The position numbers and the translations under genes are program-made. Under the pieces are notes generated by a model. That model ran no database searches and was not told the DNA's origin. It saw nothing but the letters and a program-made list of their open reading frames with translations. This document shows positions 4,540 to 34,833 of a stretch of DNA of 34,833 nt, piece after piece. The first letter of the stretch is position 1, and each line of letters starts with the position of its first letter. Source of the stretch: a virus; IMG/VR virus record IMGVR_UViG_3300027386_000003; one strand, written 5' to 3'.

Positions 4540-6032
4540 TAGGAACCTCTCTCAAGCTGCTCCAGTCTATCAATCTCCTGCTGTAGCTGCGTAAGCTCGG
4601 AGGATTCTTCTGGAGTCAATCCTGTTCCAGCCCCAGGCCCTAAGTCCGCCGCAAAGTCGACCACTTCCTCAGTATCGGACTTGAAGCGACTCAAAGGATT
4701 AGCGATAAAGTCCTGCTCGGTCGGAACCGTGATTCCCTGATCCAGGAAGTATTGCCGCCGGCGAATGGTCGCGTCAATCTCGGCCTGCGCTCCCTCGAGC
4801 TTGGACATGAACTCGGTCGGGCCGTCACGAGACGGGTCAGGAATGGCCTTGCGGATACGGTCCGCCTCTTTCTCTGACATCTGTGCGCCGGTGATCTCCT
4901 TGATATACCGGTTCATCGCATCGTAGGAAGATCGTTTCCAGGTCGAAAAGTCGGACAGCTCTTTCCGGGACTCTTTCGACAGCGTGGCTCCGGCCTTCTC
5001 CTGCAAATCCAGAGTGGTCAATCTGATTTTGCCTGGGATAGTCAGATACTCCGGCTTCACAGTCTCCCGGATCTCCGCAAACTTGGCGGCAGAGTCGGCC
5101 AGCCCAATCACCTTCGTCTGTTCCTTGCCTTTAACAGATGCCTCCAGGCTGGTCTCTGGAGCAAACGTCCAGCCCTTTGTAGTGAGATCATCCGCCTGTG
5201 CCTGCGTGGTCACTGCGCGGACTTCCCCATCCGGGGACACCATGTTCCGTCCCTCCTTCAATCGGGCCGGGGCTTCTGCGGGCAGCTCCAATTCAGGTCT
5301 TACCAATTCCGAAGTTCCGTCAGGATTCAAGAAATACTTGCGGCCGTCCGCCAGCTGCACGATCTTTCTATCAGCGCTACCCGGTTTCTTTTCCACCAGC
5401 TTCACAAGCTCTGCCTGCCTCTGCTCAGGAGTCATGGCCTCCAGAAGCTTCGGATCGTATCCGCCCTGCGTATGCAGAATATCCGCAATCGCTTGCTGTT
5501 TCTGCAAGGTCTCTGCCTTGCGCTCCGCTCGGCGAGTCCCTTCCTTGCCTTTCAGGGCTTCCATATCCTTGGCCTGCTTCCAGTGCATCAGTCCGCCCGC
5601 TATGAGGCCTCCAATGCCGCCGGTCTGGAGATTCTGCAATCCAGCCCCCCTGCTCTCCAATGACTTTCTCTCCTGCACAAGAGCATCCACTAGCGGATCT
5701 CCTGTAGAGCCGGGCGCGATCACCGGGCCTGTGGGGGATGCGCCCGGAGCTGCCGGTGCCGTGCCTGCGGGAATCGTTCCTGGGCCGACACTGACCATCG
5801 GGCCAGCTGGAGTCGATACCGGGGCCGCCGGGGCTACTGTGCCTCCCGGCATTGGTGCAGAACTGCCCGGAAGGGACGCCATGATTGAAGCAAGCCCTGG
5901 CATGGGGCCTGCGAACCCTCCTGTGGAGATCGGCAACCCTCCTGCTCCAGCCATCGGGGAAGGCCCCATGGGGGAACGCATAGCGGGATACGGCAATCCC
6001 ACTGGACCTGCGGCTGTATTCAGGACTGGCAT
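4539..6032 (-). CDS. Internal virion / ejection-protein-like protein (497 aa) with a 110-aa Pro/Gly/Ala-rich N-terminus
   Basis: ATG 6032 overlaps the end of the upstream gene. The call rests on composition and gene position only. Confidence 0.5.
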   Translation of the reverse strand: MPVLNTAAGPVGLPYPAMRSPMGPSPMAGAGGLPISTGGFAGPMPGLASIMASLPGSSAPMPGGTVAPAAPVSTPAGPMVSVGPGTIPAGTAPAAPGASPTGPVIAPGSTGDPLVDALVQERKSLESRGAGLQNLQTGGIGGLIAGGLMHWKQAKDMEALKGKEGTRRAERKAETLQKQQAIADILHTQGGYDPKLLEAMTPEQRQAELVKLVEKKPGSADRKIVQLADGRKYFLNPDGTSELVRPELELPAEAPARLKEGRNMVSPDGEVRAVTTQAQADDLTTKGWTFAPETSLEASVKGKEQTKVIGLADSAAKFAEIRETVKPEYLTIPGKIRLTTLDLQEKAGATLSKESRKELSDFSTWKRSSYDAMNRYIKEITGAQMSEKEADRIRKAIPDPSRDGPTEFMSKLEGAQAEIDATIRRRQYFLDQGITVPTEQDFIANPLSRFKSDTEEVVDFAADLGPGAGTGLTPEESSELTQLQQEIDRLEQLERGS

Positions 6033-7228
6033 GGAATCACCTTCGAGTAGTCCACTGCGAGCCAGCGCCCGATCCGCTTCACTGCGTCAGGCATGACCTT
6101 GGCCACTTCCTGAGCCATCACTCCCAGCCTCTCCGGGCCGCCCCAGATGTACTTGAAGCGATAGACATTCAGCCCGTTGCTCATTCTGCCCACCTTGCGG
6201 ACCTTCTCTTTCAGTCTCGCATCGGAGAGTATGAACGGCGCGGCCGCCATAACTGTATTCTGGAAGTTCTGCATTCCCTGGTTGTACTGATTCAGGCGAT
6301 TCGCGTAGTTGCTCTGAACCATTCCGGTAATGTCCGGGGCCTGCATATTGTACTGCGGGGTCTGGTGGAACTGCGGCATGGTCGGATTCTGCACAGTGGC
6401 GAGAATACTGGCCAGCTCATTGAATGGTTGCTGTCTCTGCGTCAGCAATTCGTCTCTGGACATTCCACGCATGGCCATCTGCTCCCTCAATCTGCGGGAG
6501 GCTTCATCGCCGGCGAACTGACTGGCCTGCATTCGCTGGTTGAATAGCCTCTGCTGGTCGCCGGCCTGGAACTGAGATCCGGCCAAGCCCTCGCCGAACT
6601 GTCGGGCGGCTTCTCCTGCCTCGAATCCGGCCACGCCCATTTCCTCTCCGAACCTCTGTCCTCGGAGTGCCGATGCGAGCCTGGTCAGGCGATCCTGCTC
6701 GGCGCGTCCTGCGCCCACCGAGGACAGGGCCAGATTCTCCAGCGCGTCTCCGCGCTCTCTGCCATACCTGTCCATTTCCCGTTCATAAGCTTCACTGCCT
6801 AGTGCGATTCCCCGATTCGCCAGCATCGAGGCCAGCTGATTCTCCCGGTCCTCGAATTGCGGACTCAGGCGATTGAATCCTCGGTCATAGGTGGCCTGCT
6901 CGAGCGAGTCCCCCATGCCCTGGAACTGGCCAGCAGTCGGCATATCCGGCAAAGCGCCCAGATCCGGCGCTTGCACAGGCCCAGATGAAGTCGGCGCGTT
7001 GACTGCCGCGCCTCTCCCCATGCTGGCCAGATCCGCCGGGTTCATCCAAGACCCTTGAATTTCAGGCAAGCCGCCAAAGTCCAAAGGCTTACCCCATTGA
7101 TCTCCCAGCTGCTTCAGCGTTCCCTGCGTCGCTGAGCTGGCTCCGGGAGTCTGCGTGGTCGTCTGCTTGAATGGCGTATCCGCCTTCTTGGGCGGGGTAA
7201 TCTGCAAGCTGGTATCCGTTACGGCCAT
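6020..7228 (-). CDS. Fiber/needle-like protein with a C-terminal intramolecular chaperone auto-processing domain (Peptidase_S74)
   Basis: The C-terminal 68 aa are SDARLKEKVRKVGRMSNGLNVYRFKYIWGGPERLGVMAQEVAKVMPDAVKRIGRWLAVDYSKV. They match the S74 pattern SDxRLKxxI...FxYK...GxxAQEVxxxxPxxV...VDY. Confidence 0.75.
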   Translation of the reverse strand: MAVTDTSLQITPPKKADTPFKQTTTQTPGASSATQGTLKQLGDQWGKPLDFGGLPEIQGSWMNPADLASMGRGAAVNAPTSSGPVQAPDLGALPDMPTAGQFQGMGDSLEQATYDRGFNRLSPQFEDRENQLASMLANRGIALGSEAYEREMDRYGRERGDALENLALSSVGAGRAEQDRLTRLASALRGQRFGEEMGVAGFEAGEAARQFGEGLAGSQFQAGDQQRLFNQRMQASQFAGDEASRRLREQMAMRGMSRDELLTQRQQPFNELASILATVQNPTMPQFHQTPQYNMQAPDITGMVQSNYANRLNQYNQGMQNFQNTVMAAAPFILSDARLKEKVRKVGRMSNGLNVYRFKYIWGGPERLGVMAQEVAKVMPDAVKRIGRWLAVDYSKVIPCQS

Positions 7229-14539: not shown

Positions 14540-14689
14540 ATGGCACACAGAAACGTCATTTCCCTCCGCCTCAGCGACCGGCTGAAGAAGGCCGTCGCCG
14601 AATATTCGGAGAAGTCCGGGCTGTCGGCGAACAAGGTCATCCGGCTGGCCCTGTACAAGTTCCTCGGCATCGAGGAAGAATCCCGATGA
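14540..14689 (+). CDS. Ribbon-helix-helix (CopG/Arc-like) regulator, 49 aa; absent from the ORF track because it is under 60 aa
   Basis: Manual translation gives MAHRNVISLRLSDRLKKAVAEYSEKSGLSANKVIRLALYKFLGIEEESR, a textbook RHH. An ATGA overlap couples it to the next ORF. Confidence 0.75.
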   Translation: MAHRNVISLRLSDRLKKAVAEYSEKSGLSANKVIRLALYKFLGIEEESR

Positions 14690-14787
14690 ATTTCACACCC
14701 AGATCGCCCTGGTCGCATTTCAGTCCACCGCCGCTAGAATCCTCCAGCGGTCCTTCTCGGGTGCGACCAGCGGCGTTACACGCATGA
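14686..14787 (+). CDS. Micro-ORF (33 aa, Pro/Ser-rich), coupled by ATGA at both ends
   Basis: The product is MNFTPRSPWSHFSPPPLESSSGPSRVRPAALHA. The start overlaps the RHH stop and the stop overlaps the next ATG. Confidence 0.35.
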   Translation: MNFTPRSPWSHFSPPPLESSSGPSRVRPAALHA

Positions 14788-14924
14788 ACGAGTTCGATAG
14801 AGAACACCGCTTCGCCCATCTAGGCAGCGACTCGGATTGTCCGGCCTGCGGGGTCGAAATGGAAGCACTGGAGGATGGGCAGGTCTGCCCGTCCTGTCTT
14901 TACGCCACTCCGGAGGAAGAATGA
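14784..14924 (+). CDS. Zinc-ribbon mini-protein (46 aa)
   Basis: The product is MNEFDREHRFAHLGSDSDCPACGVEMEALEDGQVCPSCLYATPEEE, with CPxC-N15-CPxC. Confidence 0.55.
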   Translation: MNEFDREHRFAHLGSDSDCPACGVEMEALEDGQVCPSCLYATPEEE

Positions 14925-14928
14925 ACCG

Positions 14929-15120
14929 ATGACCATCAGCAGATTTGACGAACTGAAAATCACCCGCCTCCCCACCGAGGAAGAGCTCAACTACAGGGAC
15001 ATAGCGGCCGCAGGAGAAGTCCTGTCCATCAATGCCCTGGAGCGATACCTGGTGGATCTGGAGAGGCGGATCAAACGTCTTGAGAAAGCCGCCGCCGAAC
15101 ACGGGCTCACGCACCGATGA
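14929..15120 (+). CDS. Hypothetical coiled-coil protein (63 aa), paralogous to 15629..15832
   Basis: ATG 14929 (MTISRFDEL...) follows the zinc-ribbon stop. Its C-terminus LERYLVDLERRIKRLEKAAAEH resembles LEALLRSVDDRIESLEKETHRE in the paralog. Confidence 0.55.
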   Translation: MTISRFDELKITRLPTEEELNYRDIAAAGEVLSINALERYLVDLERRIKRLEKAAAEHGLTHR

Positions 15121-15632
15121 ACCGCATTACCTCTGTCCGGCATATCGAGCCCTGGCTGGAGACACTGGAGCGCGTCTGCTCAAAAGGAGCGGACGCTCAG
15201 GGCCAGGGAATGGCCTGGTACTTCCGGCCTTTCGACTACGACCATATTGCCAAGTCCATTGTTATCTGCATGAACAATGAGGGACAGGAATCTGGCCATT
15301 TCTGGATCTGGAATGAAAACGGGTGCCTGTGGGGCTGCGTCATAAAGGACCTGTTTACCCCTAATTTCCGGTTTCTTCATGAGCTGCTTTTGCGGGTTGA
15401 TCCAACGGTCAAAGGAGCGACTCGTCCATTGAGAGATGAAGCGGCCCGAATTGCCGGTATGGAGTACGGGGCCAATATTCACTATGCGGTCAATGTTCAT
15501 CTGACGCGGCCCGGACTCTCCCCTGAGAAGGAATCCGAAGTGATGATCGAGAGACAGGGCTACAGCCCTCTATCCATGGTCTGGGTCAGGGGAATCAATG
15601 GAGATGCCCCACAGGAGAAATCAAGCGGATGA
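15117..15632 (+). CDS. Hypothetical protein (171 aa), possibly a GNAT-like fold
   Basis: ATGA coupling is present at both ends. LHELLLRVDPTVKGATRPLRDEAARIA...MIERQGYSPL weakly resembles GNAT motif A/B. The resemblance is not decisive. Confidence 0.6.
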   Translation: MNRITSVRHIEPWLETLERVCSKGADAQGQGMAWYFRPFDYDHIAKSIVICMNNEGQESGHFWIWNENGCLWGCVIKDLFTPNFRFLHELLLRVDPTVKGATRPLRDEAARIAGMEYGANIHYAVNVHLTRPGLSPEKESEVMIERQGYSPLSMVWVRGINGDAPQEKSSG

Positions 15633-15832
15633 ACGACCATCAGCTCTCGTTCAAAGACCGGCTTGCCTTGGCGATCCGGCTGGCCCAGAACGGAGAAACC
15701 GTTGTCAACCAGAGCCATAGTGGAAGAATGGTGCTGGACTTGAGCTGGCTGGAAGCCCTGTTGCGTTCGGTGGACGACCGAATAGAATCATTGGAAAAGG
15801 AGACTCATCGTGAACAAGAGACAAATGATTGA
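15629..15832 (+). CDS. Hypothetical coiled-coil protein (67 aa)
   Basis: ATGA overlap with the upstream gene. It is a paralog of 14929..15120. Confidence 0.55.
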   Translation: MNDHQLSFKDRLALAIRLAQNGETVVNQSHSGRMVLDLSWLEALLRSVDDRIESLEKETHREQETND

Positions 15833-16094
15833 TCGGGTGACTGGCTGGGACTGTATTGAAATGAGATTCCCAGAAAGCTACACTCTTTACGGAGTACACA
15901 CGCACACGAAGCCTCTGGATCTGGTGCGATCTGGTTTCATTCGCCGGCGAGACCGAAAGAATCTGGTTCGATTCGCTTTTGAGTTCCAGGAGAATGCCAG
16001 AAGAACCCATATTCAGCAGTCTTTGATGGCGCAGGCTCTTAAACCTTACAAGGGCTATTATGATGGGCAACTTCCAAGAATGGGGCTGTATTGA
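15810..16094 (+). CDS. Hypothetical protein (94 aa)
   Basis: A GTG start is preceded by AAGGAG with a 7-nt spacer. Confidence 0.5.
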   Translation: MNKRQMIDRVTGWDCIEMRFPESYTLYGVHTHTKPLDLVRSGFIRRRDRKNLVRFAFEFQENARRTHIQQSLMAQALKPYKGYYDGQLPRMGLY

Positions 16095-16097
16095 GAC

Positions 16098-16352
16098 ATG
16101 AAAATCCGATTCATGCAGACAGGGAACAAGGGCCGCTGGGGAGTCGTCGCCGGCCGTTCCCCTCTGCTATTCGACGGCGCTCCGGTATTCGTCCATGCGA
16201 CCCGATACGGCCCGCATCGCCGCTTCTACTGCAATTTCTGCGGGGAGTTCCAGGGACGGCGTCTGAAGGACGTGGGGAACGAGATCAGGAACCGAATATT
16301 CAAAATGAGAAAACCCAAAAAGGAGGGAAACCGTGCTATTGATTCTATCTAA
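16098..16352 (+). CDS. Hypothetical basic protein (84 aa)
   Basis: ATG 16098 lies 4 nt after the upstream stop. The C-terminus is basic. Confidence 0.5.
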   Translation: MKIRFMQTGNKGRWGVVAGRSPLLFDGAPVFVHATRYGPHRRFYCNFCGEFQGRRLKDVGNEIRNRIFKMRKPKKEGNRAIDSI

Positions 16353-16563
16353 TGCGGAGACTGGGGAGATTCTCTTGCGAATTGAGAATTATGATGGGGC
16401 TCTGCCTGCTATAGAAGATTCCTTGGTGGTGGAGAATATGTCTTTATCGGATAACGCCAGCCCGACCCAAACGGTCGCTATGTCCGCGGCTCGAGTTGTC
16501 TTTAGACAGTTTTCTATAATCAGGGGCCTTGAATCCGTACAATTAGGGCTGAAGCCTCTTTGA
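16333..16563 (+). CDS. Hypothetical protein (76 aa)
   Basis: A GTG start is preceded by AGGAGG with a 6-nt spacer. Confidence 0.5.
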   Translation: MLLILSNAETGEILLRIENYDGALPAIEDSLVVENMSLSDNASPTQTVAMSAARVVFRQFSIIRGLESVQLGLKPL

Positions 16564-16568
16564 AACCC

Positions 16569-16883
16569 ATGAGAACTTTCCTCCGCGCCAAGATTCACGG
16601 CGCAATCGTCACTGGCATTCAGCCCGACTATGAGGGGTCAATCGCGCTCGGCCCTGAACTGATGCACCAGGTCGGAATCAAGAAATACGAGCAGGTCTAT
16701 ATCTACAATCCCAGGACCGGCTCGGTGCATACCACCTATGCCCTCAAGGGAGAACCCGGCATGGTGGAGGGCAGAGGCGCTTCGGCCCGTCGCATGGAGA
16801 TCGGGGATTCCCTGATTATTTGCTGCTACGGGCAATACCCGGATGAAGGGCCTTTTCCGAAACCCAGTCAAATCGTTCTTTAG
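16569..16883 (+). CDS. panD: Aspartate 1-decarboxylase (PanD)-like pyruvoyl-dependent decarboxylase, 104 aa
   Basis: MRTFLRAKIHGAIVTGIQPDYEGSIALG aligns with E. coli PanD [29 protein letters not shown]. This covers Lys9, His11, Tyr22 and the Gly24-Ser25 self-cleavage site. The TTY (Thr57/Tyr58) and GDxxII blocks are also conserved. ATG 16569 is preferred over the TTG at 16560. Confidence 0.75.
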   Translation: MRTFLRAKIHGAIVTGIQPDYEGSIALGPELMHQVGIKKYEQVYIYNPRTGSVHTTYALKGEPGMVEGRGASARRMEIGDSLIICCYGQYPDEGPFPKPSQIVL

Positions 16884-16887
16884 GATC

Positions 16888-16961
16888 TGGTTGCGAGAGC
16901 AGGAATCGAACCTGCGGTGCTGGAACATGAAACCAGCGTGTTGCCACTACACCATCTCGCT
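16888..16961 (-). tRNA. tRNA with anticodon CAU (Met, fMet or Ile2 type) and an encoded CCA end
   Basis: The reverse complement folds as a cloverleaf. The acceptor is AGCGAGA/TCTCGCA with an A1-A72 mismatch. The D arm is GTGT-AGTGGCA-ACAC. The anticodon arm is CTGGT-TTCATGT-TCCAG. The T arm is GCAGG-TTCGATT-CCTGC. The 3' end is ACCA. Confidence 0.8.
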
Positions 16962-21949: not shown

Positions 21950-24661
21950 TTATCCAACTAATGCGTAGCAGTTACCTACAGAAGACACTGAAATATCAGC
22001 GTCCCTATGGTCTCTATAAGGTCTAACAAGCAAAGTCGAGCCAGATAACCAAAGTTGCGCCCCAACCCCATAAATATTTTGAGCGCTTTCCTTCCTAACA
22101 AAAGTAACAGGCCATTTATCTCCACTAGAAGTTATTTCCGCAAAAGGAGCAGCCAATATTTTTTTAGTTATGTCGCGCCCGCCTGTTCCAGAGCCGCTTA
22201 CGTTAAGAACAATATCCACTTTCCTGGTATTGCTGGGAATTGTGAATTGGTAATTCCCGTCTCGATTTTGTCCAAGCGCAGCTAGCGCCACATACGAAAC
22301 TCCTCCGCTTGCTGCATCTCCGGGATCGCCTTTGGGGCCTGCCGGGCCTGCCGGGCCTTGAGCACCAGCATCACCCGGATCGCCTTGCGGTCCTGCCGGG
22401 CCTTGAGCACCTGCCGGGCCTGCCGGGCCTTCCGGGCCTTGCTCGCCTTGCGGAGCCGCATCGGAGGGCATCCAACCGGTAATCGCATGGGCGCGGCCGG
22501 CCTTGATCTGGCACTTGATATAGCCCGCCTGTGCATCCGACGACCGCGTGATGTTCCCCGCCTGCGTGGCAGTGATTGGAATGGCGAGGATGGTTCCTAC
22601 ACGATCCAGTGCCGCCAACCCCTCGGACGGGTTCACATTGTTGATCGTCTGCCCGCCAATGGTGACAGTCGCATTGATGCTGGTACTTACGGCCTCCAGC
22701 GGACGATATGCGAATAACAGGGTGCGGGCTTCATTGTTCCTCACCCACTTGGATAGCGGCCTGAATGCGGCCGTGCGGGCAATCGTATCGTCGATCCGCG
22801 TCCCCAGTGCAGTATCCGCATTTTCCCGTGCCGTTTCCTCTGCCGTCAGATTGGCCGTGGTTGCGTATCCGCCCAATACGCGAGCCAAGACCCTGCGAAT
22901 CCCGTACACCGTGGCGGATCGGGTGTTGTTGAAACTGGAATTAGCGTCATAGTCCGCATCTCTTGCCAGTGCGACAATTCCGGCGGTGGAACCAGTGGCC
23001 AATTTGAGAATGCGATCCAGGAATCGAGCAACCTTCCGAACCGATAGATAGCCCGTATCATCCAGCGCGTTTCTCGCCGCCTGATTGATTCCAGCCAAGT
23101 CCGTCTGATTCGACTGATTCCTGACCGCATCGACCTGTATGTTCGTGGCCTTCGCAATAGAGGTTCCAGTACCCGTGCCAACCTCACTCTTGGTAGCCGG
23201 ATATTCGCCCCGGTCTCCGAAAGGTGAAACATACTTGTTCGAGAAGCCCACTCTCCCGTTGCTGTTCATGAACTCAAGAATCCAGTCCGCCGCCTGTCCT
23301 GCGCCGGTGCTTCCGATATTCCTTGCTTCCTCTGCCGTGATCTCGAAGCGTATCCGCCGGTCTCCCCCTGTCAAAGTCCAGTTTTCGGTATGCACCAGGA
23401 CTCCATTGACCGTCAACCGGATCTGGCTGATTTCAGGACTGGTATTCAGCAAGACATCGTTCAGGTCGCTCAACACCAGCGTATGCGTCCCGATCAAAGC
23501 GGCCGCATCGTCGAATGTCAGGGGATAAATCCGAATCTTGCAGAAGGTAATCTCGGTCAATACCGCATCCGGCATCTTGACCAGAGGGAACTTGTTGTTG
23601 GGTCTGTCCCTGCGGGCGGCCAGTTCCACCCGTTCATTGATCCGCGCATCAATCTCACTGTTCCCGACTCCCGACACGACCTCCAGGCTGTAGATAGCAG
23701 AGAATAGCTCCCCATCCGTAGAGTTCAAAAGCCTGACCACAATATCGACATTCGAGCCAACCGCCCTGCCATTCAGATAAGTTCGGATAGCCGTATTCAC
23801 GGCCAGTTCAATGACCCGCTCCGTTCCTGTCGGGTCAAATGATCCGGTAATCCGCTCGGAACCGATTTGCAAAACCCACTGCGTAGCGGTGGGGAAAGCG
23901 TTCCTTCTGGTATGCAGTGAAACCCTGAATCTTCCCGGCAAATTCTGTTTGTCCACCATTCCGGGTGAAATGTAGGCAATCAGCTTGATCTCATTTGCCC
24001 TGATCTCGGCAATATCGTCCTGGTCGGCCAGCAACAGATGCTCGTAAAAGGGTTGCGGCATCGTCCCTGGGGTATAGCGAATGACCTCCTCCAGAGAGCG
24101 AGTGGAATCAAGGAAAAACAGGTCTCCGACTGCCCAAGAGATATGAGAGGCCGTATTTGCTTCGGTCTGGTCGGCGAAACTGCCTCGATACGGCTTGTTT
24201 CGCGTCTCTGCTATCAGGCTAAATTCAGTCTGCCGGAATACCTTCTCGCCGCCTGGATCATTCACCGGGTCTCGGTCCACCACGACATAAGGCTTGTGGT
24301 TGAGGATCTGGTATGCGTATTGCCCTTCGACATGGTTGTTTGCCGTCAGCGTGGAAATATCCAGTACGGCCCCAATGTAGTCCGCCGACGAATAATTGCG
24401 GCCGGATACAACCGGGTCTCTGCCATGCGAAGTTCCCGTTTTCGTCAGATACGCCTTTTCATCGGTAATGTCCAGCTTCCCTACAGTATCCTCCGAAGCC
24501 CCTGTATCATTCAGGACTCTCTGTTCCGTCTGTGCTGGAATATCAGGGAAAGTCCGTTGCTTGGTGACGAAAGCACCGCTTTCCCTCCGGTCAGCGGCAA
24601 GAATATCGCCGGACTGGAGTTCGCCGCCCTGATCAAGATCACCAAAATTTACGTCAGCCAT
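21950..24661 (-). CDS. Large tail fiber / receptor-binding protein (903 aa) with a 45-aa collagen-like linker and an AT-rich C-terminal tip domain
   Basis: The Gly-X-Y run [45 protein letters not shown] is at 22313-22447. The gene follows the other fiber gene. Confidence 0.7.
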   Translation of the reverse strand: MADVNFGDLDQGGELQSGDILAADRRESGAFVTKQRTFPDIPAQTEQRVLNDTGASEDTVGKLDITDEKAYLTKTGTSHGRDPVVSGRNYSSADYIGAVLDISTLTANNHVEGQYAYQILNHKPYVVVDRDPVNDPGGEKVFRQTEFSLIAETRNKPYRGSFADQTEANTASHISWAVGDLFFLDSTRSLEEVIRYTPGTMPQPFYEHLLLADQDDIAEIRANEIKLIAYISPGMVDKQNLPGRFRVSLHTRRNAFPTATQWVLQIGSERITGSFDPTGTERVIELAVNTAIRTYLNGRAVGSNVDIVVRLLNSTDGELFSAIYSLEVVSGVGNSEIDARINERVELAARRDRPNNKFPLVKMPDAVLTEITFCKIRIYPLTFDDAAALIGTHTLVLSDLNDVLLNTSPEISQIRLTVNGVLVHTENWTLTGGDRRIRFEITAEEARNIGSTGAGQAADWILEFMNSNGRVGFSNKYVSPFGDRGEYPATKSEVGTGTGTSIAKATNIQVDAVRNQSNQTDLAGINQAARNALDDTGYLSVRKVARFLDRILKLATGSTAGIVALARDADYDANSSFNNTRSATVYGIRRVLARVLGGYATTANLTAEETARENADTALGTRIDDTIARTAAFRPLSKWVRNNEARTLLFAYRPLEAVSTSINATVTIGGQTINNVNPSEGLAALDRVGTILAIPITATQAGNITRSSDAQAGYIKCQIKAGRAHAITGWMPSDAAPQGEQGPEGPAGPAGAQGPAGPQGDPGDAGAQGPAGPAGPKGDPGDAASGGVSYVALAALGQNRDGNYQFTIPSNTRKVDIVLNVSGSGTGGRDITKKILAAPFAEITSSGDKWPVTFVRKESAQNIYGVGAQLWLSGSTLLVRPYRDHRDADISVSSVGNCYALVG

Positions 24662-24685
24662 AATTTTATTTTATCCCTCTATTCC

Positions 24686-27274
24686 TCATGCAGCGCGAGC
24701 AATCAGATTGTCCCCGCTACGGGTGGTGAGGCGATCTCCGCCTCGTGTCGTCAGGTATAGGACATCGGCAACCGGCGGCGCTTCTGCCGTCCCCATGACC
24801 AGCGTGGCATAGTTGAATCCGGAGACTCTGCCTGCCGCCGATATGGTCTTGGTGGCCGCATCGTAATTGATTCGATTGTCTCTGTCCCTGCCGTATCCGG
24901 TGAAGTCCTGCGCGAATGCCTCAGTGGGCAACATATGGGAGCTTTCAACACCACTCCCTCCAGTAACCCCCACAAACAGGAACAGGAAGTCCTCGTAATC
25001 GTCCGGCAGGACGAAACTGGTTGCGGTGCTGGCCAGATCCCACGCGAGAATCTCTCGTGATGGGGAACCTCCAGCCATTCCCGGAGCGCCTGCGTCTCCC
25101 TTCGGACCTGGCGGTCCTCCAGGGTCTCCCGGGTCTCCCTTTGCTCCCGGAACTCCTGGATCTCCCTTTGGGCCGATAGGACCTGGTGATCCGTCCGTGC
25201 CGTTACTTCCGTCCGCACCAGGAGCGCCTGCGTCTCCCTTGAGTCCCTGAATCCCTTGTGCGCCCGGATCTCCCTTTGCTCCCGGAGCGCCTGTGTCTCC
25301 TTGTACGCCCTGTGCGCCCTGAGGGCCCTGAGGGCCTTCTGGGCCTGGATTTCCCTTAGGACCTGGTGATCCGTCCGTGCCGTTACTTCCGTCCGCACCA
25401 GGAGCGCCCTGTGCGCCCTGAGGGCCTTCTGGGCCTGGATTTCCCGGAGATCCTTTATCCCCATCATCCCCATCGGAACCAGGAGCTCCAATATCGCCTT
25501 TCGGGCCTTGATTCCCTCTGGGGCCTGCGTCTCCCGTATCCCCTTTCAATCCCTGCGGACCTTGCGGGCCTGGCCCGCCTTGTGGGCCTGTGCCTCCATG
25601 ACGTCCGCGTTCTCCCTGTGGGCCTGGATCGCCTTTCTGGCCTGTCTCTCCTTGAATGCCCTGAGTGCCTTCTGGGCCTTCCGCTCCTCCCTGGAGTTGG
25701 TATAGAGAAACATCGGCAGTAGTTTCAAGTCTGTTTCTGGCTCGCACCAGCAAAGTCCCACTGGCGGATCTTCCATATCCCAATCTTGGGGAACTTCCAA
25801 GAAACAGAACCTGCGTATCATCATTAGGGCCTGTTGTGGTCGCTACTCTTTGATTCAAGAGCTCCGATGCTCGAAAAAATAGAAAATCGTCCTGGGCGGT
25901 ATCACTGAGCTGCCCGGTAATATCGGCAAAATTCTGTTTGATTGCCCAAACTTCTCCGTTCTCCCCAGATGGGAGCGGGATTCCAGTATCCCTGAACCAG
26001 AACTCCGTCCTGTCTTGTGTCGGTGCAGCCAGGTCATAAGTATCCCCGATTTGCTTCAAGCTCGCTGGGCCTGACCCTTCCACTCCTTTGGGACCTTGTG
26101 GGCCTTGTGGGCCCGCAGGCCCTGGGCCTCCCTCCGGCCCTATGTCTCCTTGCGGGCCTGCAGGCCCGGTATCTCCCGTGTCTCCCTGCGGGCCAATATC
26201 TCCCTTGACTCCCTGTTGGCCTCGCTCTCCCCTTTCCCCTCTGTCTCCCTTGCTTCCTTTCAATCCCTGAGGGCCTGTGTTTCCCGTGTCTCCTTTCGGG
26301 CCTTGAGCTCCGTCATGGCCAGAGGGCCCTCTGTCTCCGGGTATGCCCTGAGGGCCTGTGTTTCCGGTATCCCCTTTCGGGCCTGCTTCTCCCTGAATGC
26401 CTTGCGGGCCGGTATCGCCTTTCAATCCCTGAGGGCCTGTGTCTCCCGTGCCTCCTTTCGGGCCTTGGCCTCCAGTATCGCCTTTCGGGCCTTGCGGGCC
26501 GATATGCCCGCGTTCTCCCTGCGGGCCTTGGAGCCCAGCAGGGCCTTGATCGCCTTTCAGGCCTTGCGGGCCGACGTCTCCGGTATCCCCTTTCGAGCCT
26601 TGAACTCCGCGCACTCCGACAACGACAGCCAGATAGACCTCCAGCGTGGAATCGGACGGGAGCTCGTCCCCCTTTCCAAAAGGAGATAAAGTCGATCTGC
26701 CGCCATGGGTAACAGCATACGAAACATTCAATAATCCCGGTCCGAAGCTGAGACCCGCATGAGAAAAGGTAAGATTCTCACGTGCAGTAAAACTTGATCC
26801 GGCCCCAAGTCCCCAGGGAACGAACGAGGTGTCTTTCTCGACACCTGCCACCTTTGCAACCAGAAAGAACCCTATGACTTTATCGGAAGGGGGATTGTTT
26901 GGAACTCTCAGCCCTGCGTAAGTGGTTTGAAAATCACGACTAAACCCCGAAGGAATGCCGGTCTCCAATTCGAGGCTGAGCCCTCTATTATTTCTAGTAT
27001 AAACCCCGCTATATGCCGCCGTGGGGAGAGTGAGAGTGCCGATTTTCTGGCCTCTGGCAGAGCTCGATCCGCCGCCTTCATCCTGAAGCTGGCCATAGGT
27101 GGCGTATTGATCGCGCTCGGTGGCCTCTGCGACTCCCGTATGCTTGTGACCATCCATTGGAAGGTCGGCAGTCGGGCTATTCTGCCCGTCACGAGTCAAA
27201 CAGTTTTCCAGCCCTTCCTCGAGCTCGAAAGGAACTTTCGCTTTAGGGAAATTCCCTTCGCCGTCCCAAGCCAT
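24686..27274 (-). CDS. Collagen-like tail fiber (862 aa)
   Basis: The N-terminus MAWDGEGNF...[22 protein letters not shown]...DQYATYGQL is the conserved fiber N-domain. Two long Gly-X-Y blocks lie at about 26075-26617 and 25067-25690. Confidence 0.85.
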
Positions 27275-33675: not shown

Positions 33676-34833
33676 CTAGTACAGGCCTCTCCTCTGCTTA
33701 TCCTCTTCAATCAGATCATTCAGGGTCAAATGATATGGATTCGGTTGGCTGAAGTCCGGCTCAGGCGGGGGCGGCTTGGGCGCTTCCCCACTCTCCATTC
33801 CGGCCAGCATCATTCCTATGAGCGCCAGCGAATCCACCTGGTCGTCATGCTTGCCTCGGGGGAACTTCAATAGCTCCTTCACAAGATCCGGAGCCCAATG
33901 CGCGTGTTTGGGCAACCACAGGCCCAGCCCGGACATTCTCGCCTGCATCGAACGCGCCGACACCACTTTGTCCCGGGTCCTGGCCAGCTGGAGACGTCGC
34001 CCATGAATTTTCCTCTGGCTCTGTCTCTTGGTCAGGAAGGGGCCGATTCCCTTGGTAATCTGCCCTTTCTCCTCGGCCCAGGCAATGGTGCCGTATTTCT
34101 CCATCATGTCCAGCATGGGGTCTATCCACTGATCGGACTGGACCTGCTTCCGCCACACGTCCAAGAGCCACATTCGATCCTCCTGGTCGATTCCAACCAC
34201 CAGATGCACCGTGTAGTCCCCATCGTCGTCGGTCAGCGCGTAGTCCGATGCGCCGTAAGTCCGCATATGAGACAGGGGCGGGGGGTTTCCATACCGAATC
34301 CACCCCTTCTCGAAATACACGCCGCCCTCAGGATTCGGGTTGCCTTGGTACAGGCTCGCCCATCCTCTGGCACCGATGATTCTCTTTCTACGCTCCAGAT
34401 AGTCCAAAGGCCTCTGTTCCGGCCACAGGGCCTCCCCTTTGTCATTGATCGCCGGATGATGCAGGACCGTCCACTGGTCGCCCCCATTCTCCTGGTCCTC
34501 GAGCAGTCTCCCGATCAGGTCATCTTCGTGCCAGCGGGTCCCGATTATCACTACCCTCCCTCCGGGCATCAATCGGGTGTAGGCGTCGTCGGTGTACCAG
34601 CTGTAGATTTTGTCTCTCATAATGAGAGAGTCCGCATCCTCCCGGCCTTTCACGGGGTCATCAATGACCAGCAAGTCCGCTCCGAATCCGGTAATCGGGC
34701 CGGTTACGCCGGCGGCGCAATAGACTCCGCCCTGATTCGTGTGCCACAGATCCGCGGCCTTGGAATCAGGCGCGAGCGTCACTTCAGGGAATATGGAGAG
34801 GTGCGATTGGTGGGTCATTAGATTCCTGACCCG
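33676..34833 (-). CDS. terL: Terminase large subunit, main part. It is open at the window end; the N-terminus is encoded at 100..384 after circular closure.
   Basis: Walker B is LLVIDDP. The coupling motif GTRWHEDD and the C-terminal nuclease-domain acidic residues (VVGIDQ...HDDQVDSL) are present. The frame stays open upstream of the M at 34818. Confidence 0.85.
   Translation of the reverse strand, partial: RVRNLMTHQSHLSIFPEVTLAPDSKAADLWHTNQGGVYCAAGVTGPITGFGADLLVIDDPVKGREDADSLIMRDKIYSWYTDDAYTRLMPGGRVVIIGTRWHEDDLIGRLLEDQENGGDQWTVLHHPAINDKGEALWPEQRPLDYLERRKRIIGARGWASLYQGNPNPEGGVYFEKGWIRYGNPPPLSHMRTYGASDYALTDDDGDYTVHLVVGIDQEDRMWLLDVWRKQVQSDQWIDPMLDMMEKYGTIAWAEEKGQITKGIGPFLTKRQSQRKIHGRRLQLARTRDKVVSARSMQARMSGLGLWLPKHAHWAPDLVKELLKFPRGKHDDQVDSLALIGMMLAGMESGEAPKPPPPEPDFSQPNPYHLTLNDLIEEDKQRRGLY
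34735..34833. repeat. Second copy of the 99-bp terminal overlap (identical to 1..99)
   Basis: Direct comparison with bases 1-99. Confidence 0.9.

Follow-up and report, generated by a model that had tools for sequence, protein, structure and literature searches.

IMG/VR virus record IMGVR_UViG_3300027386_000003, a stretch of 34,833 nucleotides that was analyzed whole and is called the window here, carries at positions 16569-16883 of its plus strand an open reading frame (ORF) whose product (the query) resembles PanD, the bacterial aspartate 1-decarboxylase. PanD is treated as a family with one function, turning aspartate into beta-alanine for pantothenate and coenzyme A (CoA), and it is both a drug target in Mycobacterium tuberculosis and an industrial enzyme. 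A sequence-only reading of the window had proposed a divergent, phage-encoded PanD-like pyruvoyl decarboxylase with an altered substrate pocket. Our analysis supports the assignment to the family, points to the loss of a substrate-binding arginine (Arg54 of E. coli PanD) as the unusual change, and leads us to suggest that the specificity of the protein may have moved off aspartate.

The ORF opens with ATG and encodes 104 amino acids plus a stop codon, the protein beginning MRTFLRAKIHGAIV. Public gene callers chose a TTG at 16560, three codons upstream of this ATG, which gives 107 amino acids; the ATG start agrees with the N terminus of the family. Within the gene, the following codons concern the cleavage site and the active site:

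16590-16598, plus strand: Lys8-Ile9-His10; Lys8 and His10 correspond to E. coli Lys9 and His11, in columns conserved to 99% and 96% in the 239 homologues compared
16629-16640, plus strand: Tyr21-Glu22-Gly23-Ser24, the predicted self-cleavage site, corresponding to E. coli Tyr22-Glu23-Gly24-Ser25
16725-16727, plus strand: Val53 (GTG), which the HMMER alignment places opposite E. coli Arg54
16734-16739, plus strand: Thr56-Tyr57, corresponding to E. coli Thr57 and Tyr58, both in columns that are 100% conserved
16773-16775, plus strand: Arg69 (AGA), opposite E. coli Asn72 and directly after a two-residue deletion and before Gly70-Ala71-Ser72

In the last of these stretches, Gly70 and Ala71 correspond to E. 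coli Gly73 and Ala74, and Ser72 corresponds in the alignment to Ala75. Positions 54 and 72 below are those of E. coli PanD.

A predicted complete PanD fold

By its sequence and its predicted structure, the query is a phage-encoded member of the PanD (Asp_decarbox, double-psi beta-barrel) family with a complete fold. It matches the Pfam family PF02261 (Asp_decarbox) with 89 bits against a gathering cutoff of 25 (E=2.6e-25), residues 2-94 being aligned to profile positions 3-97 of 115, and HMMER comparison with solved PanD structures returned the Francisella enzyme (3oug, E=6.8e-13) and the E. coli enzyme (1ppy, E=1.1e-10). An AlphaFold2 model made with 42 homologues reached a mean predicted local distance difference test score (pLDDT) of 97.4 and a predicted template modeling score (pTM) of 0.88. 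When this model was submitted to Foldseek, the 37 best matches in the Protein Data Bank (PDB) were all PanD chains, headed by the 107-residue Francisella chain 3oug with a template modeling (TM) score of 0.95 and a root mean square deviation of 0.9 Å over 105 columns. The structure was predicted as a monomer, and pocket residues were assigned by alignment, not from pocket geometry. The likeness to PanD had been placed in the N-terminal 60 residues, which was too narrow, as the whole protein aligns, over residues 1-94 by sequence and over 105 columns by structure.

The protein had also been described as about 20 amino acids shorter than PanD at its C terminus. The difference in length holds, the query ending 22 amino acids short of the end of E. 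coli PanD, but it does not amount to a truncated fold: in the model the chain stops with the last core strand (around E. coli residue 108), and its short C terminus leaves the fold intact, with only the part beyond that strand gone. What is missing is the PanM/PanZ-binding tail of Class I enzymes. In E. coli PanD this region is Ala118-Ala126, Class I enzymes occur in Gammaproteobacteria only, and Class II PanDs mature without such a tail (PMC4537548). Because the binding tail is absent, the query would need no PanZ/PanM-type helper.

A GNAT-like ORF in the tail module of the same genome (8801-9238, minus strand, 145 amino acids) matches phrog_4470 (acyl-CoA N-acyltransferase) with E=6.5e-27 and no Pfam family. 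It was considered as a PanZ/PanM partner and rejected on account of its location and of its PDB matches, which are weak, lead to generic RimJ/RimL-type acetyltransferases only and do not include PanZ/PanM.

Membership in the family is one thing and agreement with the standard enzyme another. The TIGR00223 model, the PanD equivalog (EC 4.1.1.11), gave the query 58.3 bits, which is below the cutoff of 106 and is the lowest score of all relatives tested. The relatives, designated here by our handles for retrieved proteins, scored as follows:

Neighbors with Arg54: P0016, 103.4 bits; P0013 (marine viral clade), 106.6 bits; P0012, 114.6 bits; P0029, 117.5 bits; P0010, 120.5 bits; P0009, 123.1 bits; P0011, 156.2 bits
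Viral clade with Arg72: P0023, 92.1 bits
Forms with His54: P0141, 93.3 bits; P0144, 63.5 bits

According to the sequence-only reading, conservation of Arg54 and Asn72 would have made this an ordinary PanD. Both residues proved to be replaced and, with the low equivalog score, the query does not qualify as one.

Loss of Arg54 in an otherwise conserved active site

HMMER alignments to the PanD structures bear out what had been seen by eye, namely that the catalytic Lys and His, the Tyr-Glu-Gly-Ser site with its Gly23-Ser24 bond and the Thr-Tyr pair are all kept. In PanD, Lys9 and His11 are contributed by the neighboring subunit and bind the alpha-carboxylate (PMC3314653, PMC10743139), Thr57 is the one residue that E. 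coli PanD has been shown to need for its activation, and Tyr58 donates the proton (PMC3975893). The Tyr, Gly and Ser columns of the cleavage site are each 99% conserved among the 239 homologues. The spacing of the motifs, K-x-H(10)Y-E-G-S(31)T-Y, is fixed across the family, and the corresponding DNA pattern matches the window once, with 0 matches expected by chance. Because of this fixed spacing, the assignment of position 54 is unambiguous and not an alignment artifact.

It is at this position that the query has a valine. Arg54 of PanD, which also belongs to the neighboring subunit, grips malonate as well as the substrate analogue isoasparagine, the latter by its beta-carboxylate (PMC3975893), and it has been listed as strictly conserved and credited with setting substrate specificity (PMC3314653). 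Arg54 of the M. tuberculosis enzyme, together with the backbone amides of Ala74 and Ala75, secures pyrazinoic acid by its carboxylate, and the R54A variant was reported to be inactive and to have lost pyrazinoic acid binding (PMC6969166).

The exchange of Arg54 for Val, first noted by eye, stands in the HMMER alignment and is without parallel in the sequences that we compared. In an alignment of the query with 156 other retrieved sequences, mostly the best matches of an exhaustive HMMER search, and with E. coli PanD, Arg54 is kept in 153 of the 157 other sequences and valine is found in the query alone. The arginine is likewise kept in all 108 viral contigs from the first of our IMG/VR motif scans and in all 75 relatives from GTDB genomes, and among the more than 400 homologues inspected valine at position 54 is unique to the query. 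Across the 239 homologues, which are non-identical, 23 columns are at least 80% conserved and the query deviates at four of them (I28L, N51T, R54V and N72R); in columns that are at least 95% conserved it deviates solely at Arg54. On this sequence evidence, R54V is a single targeted change and not part of a general decay, the other catalytic apparatus being kept.

The second pocket change that had been noted, the replacement of Asn72 by Arg after a deletion of two residues, is present as described, but it is not the unusual feature that it was taken for, as it recurs in homologues that bear Arg54. Arg72 also occurs in nine of the closest representatives and in one viral clade (10 contigs), and in every one of these approximately 19 other homologues Arg54 is retained. 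P0010, the closest homologue of the query with 51% identity, has the same two-residue deletion together with Arg72, keeps Arg54, is encoded beside a fragment of panB and, with its 120.5 bits, clears the equivalog cutoff. Since Arg72 occurs in homologues that pass this cutoff, one of them beside panB, Asn72 is not strictly defining for PanD; structures of processed E. coli N72A and N72Q mutants (3tm7 and 4d7z) also exist and are among the Foldseek matches. To judge from these sequences, N72R with its deletion is a recurrent variant of the family, and of the changes in the query the loss of Arg54 is the unusual one.

Another departure from the standard active site came up in the search of representatives. 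P0104, a protein of 280 amino acids, is an apparent tandem of two PanD-like domains. In the alignment of the second one, position 54 is Met, position 72 is Thr and the cleavage stretch is L-Q-G-S where Y-E-G-S would be expected, and this second domain may be a non-catalytic duplication of the fold.

An isolated protein carried by several contigs

Identical copies of the PanD-like protein are present on at least four contigs (ENA, JGI and Logan), and the GTG codon of Val53 is at least two nucleotide changes away from every Arg codon; for these two reasons the valine is not a base-calling slip. The GC content of the gene (0.559) equals that of the genome (0.560) to within a rounding step, and we read this match, together with the two or more substitutions that separate the Val codon from Arg, as a sign that the gene may have been resident in the phage for a long time.

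Apart from these copies, the protein stands alone. A single-protein scan of IMG/VR returned no relatives, and a word-indexed search returned the protein itself and otherwise matches no more than 45% identical. When 1.84 billion cluster representatives were searched exhaustively with HMMER, 1470 matched at E<=1e-3, the next best after the query being 44-51% identical, and among about 15 billion proteins none was more than 51% identical to it. In a scan of GTDB genomes the best identity was 45% and a prophage copy was not found, and blastn of the locus against phage genomes gave no match. PHROGs holds no family for the PanD-like protein, and PADLOC had no hit for it or for its neighbors.

Genome and gene neighborhood

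Bases 1-99 of the window are identical to bases 34735-34833, and the ORF of the large terminase subunit (TerL) reads through the junction, so that the window represents a complete assembly, circular and about 34,734 bp long. The minus strand holds nearly all genes, among them those for the small and large terminase, portal, major capsid and tail proteins, collagen-like fibers, a holin-like protein, a DUF5675 protein and a helix-turn-helix protein that resembles a replication initiator. TerL itself runs on the minus strand from 33676-34833 into 1-346 and has a PPRHGKS Walker A motif; it is listed with 380 amino acids and is really about 490 amino acids or longer. The major capsid protein shares 51-54% identity with its counterparts in Myxococcus phages Mx8 and Mx9, Bradyrhizobium phage ppBjS10J-1 and Stenotrophomonas phage BUCT555, and a search of IMG/VR for related phages by way of the DUF5675 protein found none.

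Several structural and flanking genes of the minus strand deserve mention in their own right. Two very large collagen-repeat proteins of 903 and 862 amino acids, which are tail-fiber-like, are encoded at 21950-27274, and a protein of 402 amino acids at 6020-7228 has a Peptidase_S74 hit in the public gene call and matches virion-protein and tail-fiber PHROGs. The small terminase is preceded by genes for an HNH endonuclease at 1762-2397 and for a DUF6527 protein at 1063-1443.

The PanD-like gene belongs to the one part of the genome that is read from the other strand:

14540-16883, plus strand: the sole plus-strand gene block, about eight small overlapping or abutting ORFs, the last of which is the PanD-like gene
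16888-16961, minus strand: tRNA-Met (anticodon CAT), detected by ARAGORN, convergent with the block, which it ends, and lying 4 nucleotides past the stop codon of the PanD-like gene

The tRNA-Met is the only tRNA of the genome, and the GC skew becomes positive across 15-17 kb. The placement of the gene at the end of an early operon, as first proposed, agrees with its position at the end of the ORFs in 14540-16883, and to call the block early is a reasonable inference from the layout. Since a scan of 13.9-17.6 kb for promoters and terminators gave nothing beyond shuffled expectation, the boundaries of the putative operon rest on ORF packing and strand alone. The other ORFs of the block are ORFans with no Pfam, PHROG or PADLOC matches. 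The first large one (15117-15632, plus strand, 171 amino acids) has no homologue in 5.8 billion proteins, and its single-sequence AlphaFold2 model, with a pLDDT of 37, is unusable.

The PanD-like gene is a stand-alone accessory gene that closes the phage's only non-structural plus-strand block. Pfam and PHROG scans and the public-call Pfam hits covered the ORFs of the complete genome, and they revealed neither panB, panC or another family of the pantothenate pathway nor a recognizable DNA-modification gene. They also contained no EpmA or class II aminoacyl-tRNA synthetase-like match, and the suggested link between a beta-amino acid product and EpmA-type ligases finds no support in this genome.

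PanD homologues in other phages

PanD had been called a rare auxiliary gene in phages. Our scans of IMG/VR, which were DNA motif searches with fixed spacing, found the Y-E-G-S motif on 108 contigs and a relaxed motif on at least 66 more, together at least 170 contigs, several of them in clear phage contexts. One homologue (L018 among our loci) lies between the T4-like baseplate genes gp53 and gp5, another (L021) follows both ribonucleotide reductase subunits and precedes a SegE homing endonuclease, and a third (L009) lies beside PhoH; at the loci inspected, no pantothenate genes stood beside the phage PanD homologues. PanD is a recurrent stand-alone phage gene and not a rarity. Credible cases are scarce in the phage GenBank collection, two examples being Gordonia phage Jace gp87 and Achromobacter phage 2-1, and most of its remaining PanD matches are unannotated records, with a Salmonella genome record among them. 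In the literature that we searched there was no functional study of a phage PanD or of a pantothenate auxiliary gene.

The same survey uncovered a viral clade in which position 54 is histidine (L128, L130, L142, L145, L146, L154, L167, L169 and L183, with P0141 and P0144). Its motif is A-H-W-E-T-Y, followed by L-N/H-G-P-P. The gene of P0141 (L111-L113) belongs to a replication module, where it lies directly upstream of DNA polymerase A, and P0144 (L115-L116) is encoded beside a TupA-like ATP-grasp gene and a methyltransferase, while L128 adjoins a QueC-like PP-loop ATPase, L130 lies near a radical SAM gene and L169 adjoins an NMO/IMPDH-like gene. The query, with its valine, belongs to a different lineage, and the existence of the His54 clade means that the loss of Arg54 in phage PanD-like proteins extends beyond this window.

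A connection of the His54 clade with 7-deazaguanine DNA modification, prompted by the PP-loop ATPase and radical SAM neighbors of its members, was considered and dropped, because the decarboxylase proposed for that pathway, the CDG decarboxylase DpdL, is a QueD paralogue and not PanD-like (PMC10516641); such genes are not found in this window either.

Proposed function and alternative explanations

By analogy with PanD, the proenzyme would cleave itself between Gly23 and Ser24 with the assistance of Thr56, and Ser24 would turn into the pyruvoyl group at the N terminus of the alpha chain. In a PanD-like assembly with active sites at the subunit interfaces, an alpha-amino acid would be bound to the pyruvoyl group as a Schiff base, the neighboring subunit would hold the leaving alpha-carboxylate by its Lys8 and His10, and Tyr57 would reprotonate the intermediate once CO2 had left. 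The distal part of the pocket, on the other hand, would be rebuilt, Val53 taking the place of the clamp with which the neighboring subunit holds the side-chain carboxylate and Arg69 capping the backbone stretch that binds carboxylates. With the Arg54 clamp lost and Arg69 placed at this stretch, side-chain recognition would have to differ from that of PanD. The likely substrate would then be some small alpha-amino acid with a side chain outside the grip of the Arg54 clamp.

We consider the query to be probably an active pyruvoyl decarboxylase. Our preferred reading is that its specificity has moved off aspartate, so that it would no longer be a standard aspartate 1-decarboxylase, and we give this a probability of roughly 0.45. 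A changed specificity is favored because the other homologues with Arg72 keep their Arg54, because R54A is inactive in M. tuberculosis PanD, because the query is far from the equivalog, and because there is a precedent in phage SpeD/AdoMetDC homologues, pyruvoyl enzymes that have been neofunctionalized into ornithine or arginine decarboxylases (PMC9992855, PMC10407285). More generally, and as a tentative proposal that we hold at somewhat less than even odds, PanD may have been neofunctionalized in phages, yielding a pyruvoyl decarboxylase that processes itself and acts on a substrate that is not aspartate, with the His54 clade as perhaps another case.

Several points weigh against a changed specificity. 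The query is a singleton from an uncultured phage with uninformative neighbors, so that it offers no variants by which selection could be measured, and its self-cleavage, oligomeric state, catalysis and altered specificity are argued from analogy with PanD. Nor did the complete genome show a partner gene that would hint at a new substrate or at what the product is used for. A title by Cui et al. from 2014, cited in PMC10743139, names Arg3, Arg54 and Tyr58 as significant for self-cleavage of the Corynebacterium glutamicum enzyme and, as far as a title can tell, self-cleavage of the query may be impaired. Finally, Arg69 stands two to three residues before Ala71 and Ser72, the equivalents of Ala74 and Ala75 of M. 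tuberculosis PanD, and by analogy with that enzyme it could take over the clamp, in which case aspartate decarboxylase activity would be retained.

This last point leads to the best of the alternatives, in which the protein would still be an aspartate 1-decarboxylase, and the gene an auxiliary gene for beta-alanine and CoA, with Arg69 replacing Arg54 and reaching the side-chain carboxylate from the same subunit, in the manner of the relocated arginine suggested by the sequence-only reading. We regard this as less likely, though plausible. It fits the retention of all cleavage and catalytic residues and the general picture that most phage PanD homologues resemble ordinary enzymes in stand-alone genes, and position 72 does adjoin the amides of Ala74 and Ala75 that hold the ligand carboxylate in the M. 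tuberculosis enzyme (PMC6969166). Arg72 is, moreover, compatible with aspartate decarboxylation, since P0010, with Arg72 and the same deletion, adjoins panB and passes the equivalog cutoff. Yet P0010 and all the other homologues with Arg72, about 19 in number, have kept Arg54, so that Arg72 does not generally make Arg54 redundant, the R54A exchange abolishes the activity of M. tuberculosis PanD (PMC6969166), and the 58.3 equivalog bits of the query lie far under the 92-120 bits of its Arg72 relatives.

A less probable explanation, to which we give little weight, is that the gene is a dead or decaying relic of a captured PanD, or that its product is a non-enzymatic binder such as a poison subunit in host PanD tetramers. 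The residue that has been lost is essential in M. tuberculosis PanD, as R54A shows (PMC6969166), and it works across the subunit interface (PMC3314653); because Arg54 serves the active site of the neighboring subunit, a subunit that lacks it would disable a host active site. A singleton gene with relatives of at most 51% identity, the lowest equivalog score of those tested and ORFan neighbors, as are typical of host-takeover modules, would also be in keeping with such a role. Against this, every other invariant catalytic and cleavage residue has survived about 50% divergence, which would be unexpected for decay or for a binder, the ORF is intact, its model is highly confident and its composition is that of the genome. 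For the poison subunit in particular, it is speculative that it would form a heteromer with a host enzyme to which it is about 35-50% identical.

That the gene is a chance match or an artifact, such as a frameshifted or misassembled fragment of a host panD, is a notion prompted solely by the many PanD matches in "phage" databases that are unannotated or a bacterial record and may be host-derived, and it can practically be dismissed in view of the E value of 2.6e-25 to the family model over residues 2-94 of an uninterrupted ORF, the identical sequence in at least four independent contigs, the circular contig with TerL across its junction and a full phage structural module, and the lack of a copy above 45% identity in GTDB cellular genomes.

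Whether the specificity has moved off aspartate, as we prefer, or has been preserved by a relocated arginine, the query offers a simple test of whether the PanD scaffold supports other substrates or whether a second-site Arg72 rescues the loss of Arg54. The survey that accompanied it adds recurrent stand-alone phage PanD homologues and the His54 viral clade to what has been regarded as a family of one function.

Comparison with known systems

Among characterized enzymes, the query is most like Class II PanD, with which it shares the predicted double-psi beta-barrel fold, the Gly-Ser cleavage site, the equivalents of Lys9, His11, Tyr22, Thr57, Tyr58 and Gly73, the lack of a PanZ-binding tail (PMC4537548) and a size close to that of short PanDs (about 105-115 amino acids). 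It differs from bacterial PanD in having Val for the Arg54 clamp and Arg, a minority variant, for Asn72, in being phage-encoded, in falling below the equivalog cutoff and in coming from a genome in which panB and panC were not found.

The stand-alone phage PanDs, which include a marine T4-like clade ("NRHTTY"), the Arg72 clade located by ribonucleotide reductase and the clade of Jace gp87, are likewise single phage-borne genes. The marine clade is among the best matches of the query, with 44-49% identity, and shares with it His at position 55 and a D-x-L-I-I-C-x-Y stretch. All of these phage proteins, however, retain Arg54, and representatives of two of the viral clades score 106.6 (P0013) and 92.1 (P0023) against the equivalog cutoff of 106, compared with 58.3 for the query.

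The proteins of the His54 clade are also phage-encoded PanD-family members that keep Gly-Ser and Thr-Tyr, have lost Arg54, lie in non-structural modules and fall below the equivalog cutoff (93.3 bits for P0141). Their histidine, unlike the valine of the query, would still be able to bind a carboxylate, and in them positions 55-56 are occupied by Trp-Glu and position 72 is followed by Gly-Pro-Pro. They form a recurrent clade whereas the query is a singleton, and their contexts differ from its own, with DNA polymerase A, a PP-loop ATPase or a radical SAM gene nearby.

The phage SpeD homologues belong to an unrelated fold and family, and their new activities have been measured, whereas that of the query is a prediction. 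What they have in common with it is the design of a phage-borne, self-processing pyruvoyl decarboxylase in which the catalytic machinery is kept and the substrate-recognition residues are changed. If the query is indeed a neofunctionalized PanD, it would parallel the conversion of phage SpeD and would add a new activity to a very small and easily assayed scaffold.

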